Virus record (IMG/VR): IMGVR_UViG_3300042558_004043
Direction: 5' to 3' (one strand)
Source of the DNA: a virus
Taxonomy: Duplodnaviria > Caudoviricetes
DNA: 64,000 nt
Part shown: positions 12,714-14,663 of the stretch, piece after piece
Position numbering within the stretch: the first letter of the stretch is position 1
Layout of the letters: each line of letters starts with the position of its first letter
Notes under the pieces: model-generated
The model's input: only the letters and a program-made list of their open reading frames with translations
Told to the model about the DNA's origin: nothing
Databases searched by the model: none
Program-made: the position numbers and the translations under genes

Positions 12714-12956
12714 ATGGGAATAATCAAAGAAGAAATTGTTGGAACAAAAATTATTAATGAAATTCAGTCAAGTAATTTGAAAAAAACTGAATATGATACT
12801 GAGACCAAAAAAATGTTGGTTGAATTTAATAATGGTGCAAAATATGAGTATAGTGAGGTCCCCCACCAACTATATACTCAATTTAGAATGTCAGAGTCTC
12901 AAGGTAAATTTTTCAATACAAAAATTTCAAAGACTTATAAATATAGAAAAGTTTAA
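12714..12956 (+). CDS. KTSC domain protein
   Basis: SSNL...YD...L.VEFNNGAKYEY..VP......F..SESQGKFFN..I...Y signature. Confidence 0.85.
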   Translation: MGIIKEEIVGTKIINEIQSSNLKKTEYDTETKKMLVEFNNGAKYEYSEVPHQLYTQFRMSESQGKFFNTKISKTYKYRKV

Positions 12957-12986
12957 CAATTAACACTACTCAAATATTTATCTCTG

Positions 12987-14663
12987 ATGAGTAGTTTAAA
13001 AGATATTCTTTCGAGTTTTCATCTACAAGATGAACTGAACCCAAAAATTTGGTCCAAAGACGGACAAAAAATGAATCCAAAGGTCCGTGAGAGACTATTG
13101 GAGATAACCAATGATTTTATAGAATTTTTGGGTGTTGACGTTATTGTTACTGATGTAATAATGACAGGTTCACTTGCCAACTACAATTGGTCAAAATTTT
13201 CAGACATTGATTTACATATTGTTGCGAATTTTTCTCAGTTTTCAGAAGAACAATTACCACTATACGAAGAGTTATTCAAACTCAAAAAAACTTTATATAA
13301 CGACAAACACAATATAAAGATTTTTGGTTATGACGTTGAATTATACGTCCAAAACGAAACCGAAATTCATTTTAGTAGTGGTGTTTATTCTGTGTTATTT
13401 GATGAATGGAGTAACAAACCTGAAAAAGAAACTGTCAAAATTGATAAGGAATTAATCAAAACCAAGTCTCAACAATGGATGGACATTATTGATAGTGTTA
13501 TAGAAAATGCTTCAGATGAACCAATTGAAAGTGCTAAGAAAATAATTAAAAAATACAAAGATAAGTTAAAAAAATATCGTACTTGTGGTCTTGAAAAAGA
13601 TGGAGAATATTCAGATGAAAATTTGGTATTTAAAGTTCTTAGAAGAAACGGGTATATTGAAAAACTTTTTAATTTTGAAGACAAGCACATTGATAAACAA
13701 TTATCACTCAAGGAGCAGGCTGAAAGTGATGAATACTCAAATATTGTCGATAGTTTAACCGAATTATCAAATAAAAATCTGACATTAATCAATGAACCAA
13801 AACCTAAAGGTCAAAAAATCTTTAATCCAAATACTGAAATTTTACAAACAGCTTTGACACTTATGGGTTATCCTTTACCTAAATTTGGTGTTGATGGTAA
13901 ATTTGGAAAAGAAACACAAACCGCAGTTGAGTCCTTCGAATCTGAAAATGGGTTAACTGTCGATGGTAAAGTTGATTCTAAAGACTTCAAAAAAATGTCA
14001 GAAGTTATTTTTAAAAGAAGACCTGTTAAAACTTTAGAACCAATAAAATCAAAAGAAACTGAATTAATCGTTAAAAAAGAACCGAAAATTATATCACCAT
14101 CAGGTTCAGTTGATTTTAGACAAATCACAAGAAGTGTCATTAATAATTTGGAAGGAGGTTATTACAATCCAAAATGGCACAATACAAAAGGAATGGGTAG
14201 GTCAGGTGAGACTATGTTTGGAATTGATAGAAGACATGGAGGTAACTATAATACAAGTCCTGCAGGTATTAAGTTTTGGGGTATTATAGACAAAAATAAA
14301 AGTCAACAGGTTTGGAAATATAACTACAGAGGAGGACAACTTGAAGGAGAACTCACAGATTTAGTTGTTGATATTATTCAACCTTTTTATAACGAATTTA
14401 AAAATAGATACTTGTCTCCAACGGCAAAGAAATTAGTTGATAGTGATTCAAGATTGACCTTCCATTTTGCTTATGCGGTTTGGAACGGACCAGGATGGTT
14501 TAGAAAATTTGCTAAAGTTATTAATAAAGCGGTTGAAAATGGGGAACTTAATACTGATGTATTGTCCAAAAAGGCAATAAGAAGTAGAGTTGATAGTGGT
14601 AATAGTTTGATTGCTAAGAGCGGAAGAAAGATAGATGACGTTCTTGGAATTAATGCTGCGTAA
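12987..14663 (+). CDS. Fusion protein: pol-beta-family nucleotidyltransferase + peptidoglycan-binding domain + lysozyme-like (GH108-like) domain
   Basis: GSLANYNWSKFSDIDLH (GS..D.D motif); LQTALTLMGY...VDGKFGKET..AV..F...NGLTVDG; EGGYYNP...GETMFGID. Confidence 0.75.
   Translation: MSSLKDILSSFHLQDELNPKIWSKDGQKMNPKVRERLLEITNDFIEFLGVDVIVTDVIMTGSLANYNWSKFSDIDLHIVANFSQFSEEQLPLYEELFKLKKTLYNDKHNIKIFGYDVELYVQNETEIHFSSGVYSVLFDEWSNKPEKETVKIDKELIKTKSQQWMDIIDSVIENASDEPIESAKKIIKKYKDKLKKYRTCGLEKDGEYSDENLVFKVLRRNGYIEKLFNFEDKHIDKQLSLKEQAESDEYSNIVDSLTELSNKNLTLINEPKPKGQKIFNPNTEILQTALTLMGYPLPKFGVDGKFGKETQTAVESFESENGLTVDGKVDSKDFKKMSEVIFKRRPVKTLEPIKSKETELIVKKEPKIISPSGSVDFRQITRSVINNLEGGYYNPKWHNTKGMGRSGETMFGIDRRHGGNYNTSPAGIKFWGIIDKNKSQQVWKYNYRGGQLEGELTDLVVDIIQPFYNEFKNRYLSPTAKKLVDSDSRLTFHFAYAVWNGPGWFRKFAKVINKAVENGELNTDVLSKKAIRSRVDSGNSLIAKSGRKIDDVLGINAA

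Follow-up and report, generated by a model that had tools for sequence, protein, structure and literature searches.

The window analyzed here is a stretch of 64,000 nucleotides of DNA that forms part of a 108-kb Caudoviricetes record of IMG/VR (IMGVR_UViG_3300042558_004043; CheckV completeness, 37%). The element in question is a single open reading frame (ORF) in which an apparent nucleotidyltransferase (NTase) is followed by a linker, a PG_binding_1 domain, a second linker, and a lysozyme-like domain. A preliminary description of the window had placed a KTSC gene ahead of an ORF of this NTase–peptidoglycan-binding–lysozyme composition, and the coordinates and lengths of both genes were found exactly as claimed there. 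It had also described the fusion as lacking a signal peptide; in line with this, neither a signal peptide nor a membrane segment was found in the fusion, in which hydropathy did not exceed 1.53 (Kyte-Doolittle scale, 19-residue window). The features of the locus are as follows.

12714..12956, plus strand: KTSC gene, 80 aa (Pfam KTSC, E value of 6e-18)
12974..12981, plus strand: ATATTTAT motif, ending 5 nt ahead of the fusion ATG and common to head genes
12987..14663, plus strand: fusion ORF, 558 aa
12987..13715, plus strand: NTase module, aa 1-243, a predicted pol-beta core and C-terminal helical domain (phrog_36119 over its full length)
13167..13340, plus strand: NTase catalytic motifs G61-S62, D73-x-D75, and E118
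13707..13796, plus strand: linker 1 with LKE243, LTE259, and INE270, a candidate head-protease cleavage region and putative leader remnant
13827..13982, plus strand: PG_binding_1 domain, aa 281-332 (Pfam, E value of 8e-11)
14085..14660, plus strand: lysozyme-like domain, aa 367-558, a putative muramidase with a predicted lysozyme-superfamily fold (model confidence [pLDDT], 95.9)
14151..14231, plus strand: core E389-G-G-Y...G404-x-S-G-E-T-x-F-G-x-D-R415 of that domain, with the candidate catalytic Glu and beta-hairpin, invariant in 35 homologues

An apparent phage-specific nucleotidyltransferase

Two family models recognized the N-terminal module. Residues 50 to 120 matched NTP_transf_2 (PF01909) with 23.4 bits in the whole protein and 25.1 bits in the isolated module, the curated Pfam cut-off being 21 bits, and residues 11 to 241 of the fusion spanned all of phrog_36119 (E value of 3e-41), a 247-position family without assigned function. 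The catalytic motifs were invariant in 17 full-length relatives (alignment A1) and in 24 NTase-only relatives (alignment A3), confirming the earlier claim of an intact pol-beta GS/DxD NTase. The sequence has the motifs expected of the pol-beta superfamily, comprising hG[GS], the [DE]x[DE] pair, and, on the adjacent strand, a third acidic residue, and the strands are correctly placed in the AlphaFold2 model. A further invariant motif, comprising R198, G201-L, G206-E, S209, E211-N-L-V-F-K, and L218-R-R, was located in the C-terminal part of the module.

The AlphaFold2 model of the module (pLDDT, 85.4) consisted of a pol-beta core and then a helical domain, with lower values in the terminal block (pLDDT, 67 to 75). 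The best Foldseek matches of this model were weak (E values of 2e-3 to 1e-1; template modeling score of about 0.23) and comprised AAD(9), ANT(6), LinB, ANT(4'), and CdnE; CD-NTases, MNT, and CCA enzymes followed in the list and matched the core only. In the VIA wide search, the core was matched to the minimal NTase 2rff with a Z score of 6.6, the search being otherwise dominated by helical-bundle matches to the C-terminal half of the model. The phage NTase is like the small nucleotidyltransferases ANT(4')/KNTase, AAD(9), ANT(6), LinB, MNT, and the CD-NTases in its hG[GS] motif, DxD pair, third carboxylate, size of about 250 aa, and helical C-terminal domain. However, the matches to these enzymes are weak, and the conserved C-terminal motif 'GLEKDGE-S-ENLVFK-LRR' sets the phage family apart.

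The NTase family had 7,508 near-length database matches and is viral. Atlas searches on the fusion returned only viral hypothetical clusters, together with a weak VgrG3-like lead. Stand-alone members of the family were found in Maribacter phages, Lak megaphages, and T4-like cyanophages. Collectively, the conserved motifs suggest that the module is a phage-specific pol-beta nucleotidyltransferase that is apparently active.

A wall-hydrolase module with an unnamed lysozyme-like domain

The peptidoglycan-binding domain that had been noticed behind the NTase was recovered by Pfam as PG_binding_1, and the sequence matches of this segment in the PDB were the peptidoglycan-binding modules of 5tv7, 4nso, and 1lbu. 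The domain that follows it had no match in Pfam (even at an E value of 10), PHROGs, or NCBIfam, and a tblastn search of 50,697 phage records in all six frames gave none either. It had been described as a GH108-like EGGY..GET.FGI domain, and the likeness holds for the motif and probably for the predicted fold, E389, G390, G391, Y392, S406, G407, E408, T409, G412, D414, and R415 being invariant across 35 diverse homologues (alignment A2). Membership in GH108 itself was not borne out, as the Pfam model (PF05838) did not match the domain at an E value of 10 or any part of the genome record at an E value of 1. Likewise, Pfam detected no GH24 (PF00959) in the domain or in five related complete genomes, and a hidden Markov model (HMM) of the lysozyme-like family, built from alignment A2, matched no solved structure, GH108 structure sequences included. 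Because HMM-level searches match no named family or solved structure, the domain is assigned to an unnamed lysozyme-like family, which is GH108-like in motif and lies outside GH108 by the Pfam model. An exhaustive search placed 395 representative clusters in this family, 138 of them at E values below 1e-30. Its members are stand-alone proteins and also C-terminal modules of proteins of up to 1,176 aa, some of which bear PG_binding_1, M23, Amidase_2, or SLT domains as well.

Structure prediction for each domain, which had been proposed as a check, gave a pol-beta fold for the NTase and, from the 35 homologues, a high-confidence lysozyme fold for the C-terminal domain. The best Foldseek matches of the latter were Brucella SagA, pesticin, the GH108 protein NMB1012, and P1 Lyz. 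All 50 best VIA rows were lysozyme, chitosanase, or transglycosylase folds, spanning residues about 7 to 190 of 192, with Z scores of 8.5 for P22 lysozyme, 8.3 for Brucella SagA (7dnp), 8.2 for a GH24 muramidase, and 7.8 for VgrG3. Identity was highest with GH108 NMB1012 (2ikb; 19% over 133 aligned residues, Z score of 6.9, root mean square deviation of 4.4), and P22 lysozyme was an equally good match. The predicted fold thus resembles those of GH108/SagA, GH24, and the C-terminal muramidase of VgrG3 alike (Z scores of 6.9 to 8.5 over 133 to 160 residues), but there is no similarity to any of them at the HMM level, and identity is 6 to 19%. In the model, E389, the Glu of EGGY, closes helix 1, which is also the place of the EGGY Glu in GH108; E389 is probably equivalent to the catalytic Glu of lysozymes. 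VgrG3 and the fusion also have in common that a peptidoglycan-binding module is coupled with a lysozyme-like domain. Taken together, the motifs and the model support the C-terminal part of the fusion being a wall-hydrolase module, and the lysozyme-like family, with its 395 clusters and high-confidence fold, enlarges the catalogue of assayable phage lysins.

The fusion among relatives

A protein database search with the fusion, covering 5.8 billion proteins, returned 1,392 matches within the fused length range. Full-length relatives with 85 to 94% identity included one cluster of 72 members and another found on 16 contigs, the longest of 328 kb. In a second set of relatives, the three-module layout was kept at 40 to 56% identity, with all catalytic motifs invariant. 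The closest complete relative of the window phage (G001), a 321-kb genome with terminal repeats, carries the fusion as well. Many relatives shared only the NTase (70 to 80% identity), which was then followed by M23, GH19, VanY, Amidase_2, or Phage_lysozyme2, and up to three catalytic domains were present in a single fused chain (881 aa).

Gene order was compared at 80 IMG/VR loci out of the 574 IMG/VR relatives found; non-IMG contigs with fused forms (272, 230, and 190 kb) lie outside this comparison. All 80 loci had the order M20 peptidase, ClpB (on the opposite strand), KTSC, NTase, four further ORFs (o429, o137, o342, and o441), terminase large subunit, and portal, with a T4-type head protease downstream of the portal. 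Across a large clade of uncultured jumbo phages related to T4, the NTase belongs to the core gene set. The NTase ORF was stand-alone (235 to 259 aa) at 54 of the loci, with a separate ORF directly behind it at only 4 of these, and fused (424 to 881 aa) at the other 26. The cassettes at the fused loci were of M23, VanY, Phage_lysozyme2, glucosaminidase-like, and lysozyme-like types, and GH19 and Amidase_2 occurred in other database relatives.

In a quick tree of the NTase, three clades (34 rows) were wholly stand-alone, and the fused forms were either basal or part of a 31-row clade in which they are interspersed with split and stand-alone forms. The window, a fused locus (L004), and a split locus (L007) formed a fully supported trio. 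The NTase of L007 is 92% identical to that of the window and is followed by a stop codon and a separate ORF with overlapping stop and start. The distribution over the loci and the interleaving of states in the tree identify the NTase as the constant gene, to which the wall cassette is a fast-turnover addition. As judged from these comparisons, a cassette of one peptidoglycan-binding domain and one to three wall-degrading domains is attached repeatedly to the C-terminus of the NTase, and the sequences support the fusion being genuine, old, and under selection.

In relatives, insertions are concentrated in the slot behind the NTase gene. In L026 (10756-11775), L027, and L029, a leader-tagged OmpA-like ORF (339 aa) lies directly after the NTase, and in L040 (10770-10955) and L074 (10784-10972) the slot holds an ORF of about 61 aa that contains Cys. 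Several fused proteins, those of L010/L011 (646 aa), L064/L067 (779 aa), and L025 (768 aa), continue past M23 and PG_binding_1 with a further C-terminal region of 165 to 250 aa. These regions had no Pfam match; they may be more unnamed wall-enzyme domains.

Candidate head-protease sites in the linker and in hydrolase leaders

The window encodes a head protease of the T4 gp21 type, together with a major head protein.

23968..24693, plus strand: T4 gp21-type prohead protease (Pfam Peptidase_S77, PF03420, E value of 1e-24; phrog_207)
26541-28406, plus strand: major head protein, 621 aa, matched by the capsid-protein profile at aa 363-598 only

The distribution of (L/I)-x-E tripeptides suggests that the specificity of T4 gp21 for this motif is conserved in the window phage. 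Five such sites lie in the first 60 residues of the major head protein, the next occurring only at residue 376. Four were found in the first 46 residues of the scaffold-position ORF (25043-26512). The core-position ORF at 22470, which separates the portal gene from the protease gene, is enriched as well, with 10 sites where 4.7 were expected (z score of 3.0). The site-rich first 60 residues of the major head protein resemble a T4-type propeptide, and about 300 more N-terminal residues lie outside the capsid-protein profile.

The fusion has five (L/I)-x-E sites in its 558 aa. Three of them fall within a 30-residue stretch of linker 1, and the C-terminal 288 aa are free of them. More generally, a site after the end of the NTase was present in 144 of 154 fused proteins, against a background of 0.11. 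Hydrolases that are separately encoded in the clade carry N-terminal leaders of about 10 to 25 aa containing (L/I)-x-E, as in an SLT-like protein of G002, a PG_binding_1 plus Hydrolase_2 protein of G004, and a protein with the lysozyme-like domain in G006, all complete genomes of the clade. Most of the 240- to 330-aa homologues of the lysozyme-like domain bear the leader as well. In the split locus L007, the ORF after the NTase starts with such a leader ('MKKIIKLTELDLERIVKRV...'), followed by PG_binding_1, and in the fused relative P0100 the leader core 'RLTESDL' stands immediately past the NTase. The linker of the fusion accordingly looks like a remnant of a hydrolase leader, as far as these sequences can be compared.

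Leaders were not confined to hydrolases. In the window, they were found on unrelated ORFs at 10227-10604, 52913-53416, 53418-53897, 56689-57342 (minus strand), and 57353-58213 (minus strand); other leader-bearing ORFs were found at L004:4433, L013:5997, and L055:600, and there are about 30 in G001 (L156-L171). Patterns among the leaders of these ORFs include 'M-x-K-(I/V)(I/V)-R-L-T-E-S-(D/E)-L-x-x-(I/V)(I/V)-K-R-V', 'xx(I/L)(I/L)TE(E/S)(E/Q)K...', and 'MKY(L/I)ITESQ', each of which has (L/I)-x-E in it. The tagged set of G001 comprises OmpA-like and peptidoglycan-binding proteins, a DHH-like protein, and several DUFs. Among its 10 largest members, a small sample in which 4 have no family, no catalytic hydrolase recognizable by Pfam was found, which fits the fusion being the occupant of a "tagged lysin" slot.

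A head-packaged polyprotein and its alternatives

In T4, the enzyme Alt is packaged in the head and ejected, and gp21 cuts it at ITE-6 and LTE-619 (PMC5694885); a 10-aa capsid targeting sequence loads proteins into T4 heads (PMC10229621). The cluster of sites in linker 1, together with the motif-bearing leaders of separate hydrolases, makes cleavage of a polyprotein plausible in the window phage. We therefore tentatively favor, as the best-supported mechanism, a virion-carried polyprotein that is processed by the head protease. The fusion would be made late, alongside the head genes, and would enter the prohead, where the gp21-type protease would cut the linker at LKE243, LTE259, or INE270. 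Both products would exit with the DNA at the next infection, the peptidoglycan-binding lysozyme loosening the wall locally and the NTase working early in the new host. A wider form of this proposal, which is quite possible but doubtful, is that the fusion is one piece of a broad cargo-loading system of uncultured T4-related jumbo phages. In such a system, short (L/I)-x-E leaders would direct dozens of proteins to the capsid, the gp21-type protease would trim these proteins before their ejection, and in this lineage the active NTase would ride with the wall-hydrolase cassette or the reverse.

The kinds of protein to which the fusion belongs are already known, both as modular phage lysins and as protease-processed head cargo. 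The window phage and T4 share a gp21-type S77 protease and the same type of tripeptide site (ITE and LTE in Alt). Delivery of enzyme cargo with the DNA, which is established for T4 Alt, is only proposed for the fusion, a protein known from genes, and whereas the related hydrolases of the clade bear N-terminal leaders of about 10 to 25 aa, the fusion has none, its candidate sites being internal. In addition, the T4 wall hydrolase gp5 is on the baseplate and not in the head. Virion-associated hydrolases with several modules include phi29 gp13 (lysozyme and M23) and the T7 core protein gp16 (N-terminal transglycosylase). They resemble the fusion in having wall-degrading modules within a larger protein, in M23 and lysozyme-type combinations, and in module shuffling. 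In contrast, the wall modules of the fusion are joined to an enzyme of nucleotidyltransferase fold rather than to a tail or core protein with a structural role, and the fusion is only a candidate virion protein.

Several observations weigh against a packaged polyprotein. T4-type capsid targeting is N-terminal, and the fusion has no N-terminal leader: its start, 'MSSLKDILSSF...', belongs to the conserved NTase sequence, and its first (L/I)-x-E, at residue 37, lies in a helix. Among hydrolases, leaders were found on separate ORFs only. Stand-alone forms, too, have a site after the NTase end (122 of 162), and 'DK-x-LS-L-K-E' is the NTase family's own C-terminus, stand-alone forms included; even a distant cyanophage enzyme has '...DKSLSLEN...' there. 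LSLKE was therefore rejected as a fusion-specific cleavage site, and LSLKE-Q, which had been proposed as the junction between the modules, is not a purpose-built one. In cyanophage DSL-LC02, the stand-alone NTase is surrounded by replication genes, as would befit an ordinary enzyme of the cytoplasm. The leaders are themselves only putative head-targeting tags, and the presence of wall-binding proteins (OmpA-like and peptidoglycan-binding) among those tagged fits other destinations too. Finally, no cultured phage with the fusion was found, and the comparison of complete genomes has a small basis of five records.

If the wider proposal is true, a single chain would deliver a wall-opening enzyme and an early-acting NTase into the next host, for example one directed against host nucleic acids or nucleotide-based immunity. 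The NTase family is abundant in jumbo phages, Lak megaphages, and T4-like cyanophages, and its fusion to wall hydrolases is a first clue to where and when it may act. Confirmation would extend T4-style processed cargo to uncultured jumbo phages, including wall-acting proteins that are absent from the T4 head. A literature search found no paper describing an NTase-lysin fusion, which is not proof of absence.

Somewhat less probable is that the fusion is a soluble, possibly auxiliary, endolysin acting from within late in infection, with an unrelated cytoplasmic NTase that was joined to it after a lysin gene came to lie beside the NTase gene and the stop codon disappeared, no cleavage taking place. 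Like holin-dependent endolysins, the fusion has no signal peptide, and some known endolysins pair a peptidoglycan-binding domain with a catalytic one. An example is phiKZ gp144 (PDB 3bkh), which likewise combines PG_binding_1 with a lysozyme-superfamily domain and has no signal peptide; 3bkh and 9xps were among the sequence matches of the fusion's PG_binding_1 segment. The overlapping stop and start in L007 mean that mere gene adjacency could explain the origin of the fusion. Moreover, G002, G003, and G006 encode a PG_binding_1 plus GH19 protein of about 275 aa with the binding domain at the extreme N-terminus, and G004 encodes PG_binding_1 plus Amidase_2, while the fused genome G001 has neither. 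However, G001 retains an unleadered Amidase_2 protein of about 200 aa that is common to all five complete genomes, an M23 gene, and an SLT gene with a signal peptide, and replacement of the endolysin by the fusion was dropped as a leading interpretation on these grounds. G006 has both PG_binding_1 plus GH19 and a lysozyme-like protein. Clade relatives encode canonical PG_binding_1 plus GH19 endolysins as separate genes, and in the fusion the binding domain is internal, behind a 243-aa NTase, not extreme N-terminal as in the phiKZ type. The hydrolase module itself resembles the leader-tagged class rather than the class with PG_binding_1 at the extreme N-terminus. Chains with three catalytic domains, of up to 881 aa, would to our knowledge be unusual for endolysins if the host is Gram-negative. 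There is also no holin-like neighbor; a search for a lysis cassette (holin- or spanin-like) over the interval from 8 to 24 kb turned up no hydrophobic segment in any genuine ORF, the neighbors of the fusion being KTSC and the head module.

Alternatively, the NTase might serve the lysin directly. It could be a carrier or assembly adaptor that takes the place of the leader, or it could regulate the lysin, either by keeping it inactive or by nucleotidylylation of the lysin or of a wall-linked sugar. That the fusion recurs with many catalytic modules suggests a coupling to location or control rather than to any one chemistry. Fused forms also have no leader of the kind borne by separate hydrolases, and the closest overall structures (AAD(9), ANT(6), LinB, and ANT(4')) act on sugar hydroxyls of antibiotics. 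We nevertheless consider this decidedly unlikely: those structural matches are weak (E value of about 2e-3), two thirds of the clade members have a lysin-free NTase that is equally conserved, and we know of no nucleotide donor outside the cytoplasm.

Repair or completion of the 3' CCA ends of phage tRNAs and the transfer-messenger RNA (tmRNA) had been named as a candidate role of the NTase. The premise was accurate, in that three tRNAs have no encoded CCA and the tmRNA ends in CCG; the KTSC domain encoded upstream is, besides, proposed to bind RNA in its Pfam description.

7821-8198, minus strand: tmRNA (Rfam, 93 bits; missed by ARAGORN), 3' end CCG

The role itself is very unlikely. The PolyA_pol/CCA-adding family (PF01743) gave no match even at an E value of 10, the 245-aa enzyme is without RNA-binding body and tail domains, and CCA-enzyme structures match its generic core only (136 to 147 columns). 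tRNA genes without encoded CCA are also commonplace, the host's CCA enzyme being available to them.

That the fusion arose in assembly or sequencing, for example through loss of a stop codon, as the stop after the closely related NTase of L007 might suggest, is so improbable as to be negligible, since the same 558-aa frame recurs at 85 to 94% identity in several clusters, sits in a complete genome with terminal repeats, and persists across lineages diverged to 40 to 56% identity; the suspicion that relatives always encode the two parts separately does not hold, with 26 of 80 loci fused and all 80 syntenic.

Upstream motif and surrounding genes

The ATATTTAT motif ahead of the fusion has 19 plus-strand copies in the window, about 9 per strand being expected from composition, and 13 of the 19 lie no more than 40 nt upstream of ORF starts. 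The ORFs so headed include those of the NTase, o429, terminase large subunit, portal, o240, protease, and the scaffold-position protein, among others, at spacings of 4 to 33 nt; plus-strand positions include 10206, 12974, 14693, 18786, 20570, 22448, 23946, 25015, 28610, and 31620. T4's TATAAATA showed no such association with ORF starts in the window. A late-type motif had been reported upstream of the fusion; the motif at that place is shared with head genes, but it differs from T4's TATAAATA and lies 5 nt from the ATG. From its placement, ATATTTAT may be a late promoter of the phage or an initiation-region motif.

Wherever a syntenic locus was not truncated on that side, a KTSC match preceded the NTase. 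In Maribacter phage Molly and cyanophage DSL-LC02, no KTSC was found beside the NTase. A portable two-gene module of KTSC and NTase was rejected because the pairing is not seen in these two phages. As synteny within the clade is total, the adjacency of the two genes is uninformative about function.

The remaining features of the region are as follows.

6789-7182, plus strand: GOLLD RNA (Rfam, 321 bits), adjoining tRNA-Met
9380-10204, plus strand: M20/M42-like peptidase, position conserved across the clade
10618-12666, minus strand: ClpB/ClpC-type double AAA+ protein, 682 aa (phrog_4871), position conserved across the clade
14734-18757, plus strand: four ORFs between fusion and terminase (429, 137, 342, and 441 aa), syntenic in all 80 relatives
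Starting at 18810, plus strand: terminase large subunit, downstream of the fusion
Starting at 20607, plus strand: portal, downstream of the terminase

The four ORFs between fusion and terminase had no family match. The first, o429, contains PAPAPA and acidic 'EDMGMEPD' repeats, and o342 contains a duplicated 'ETPVKPDVKPERPKPQTPYQPKHKPAPKA' unit. Downstream of the head module lie two giant ORFs, at 31645-43641 (3,998 aa) and 43763-51769 (2,668 aa).

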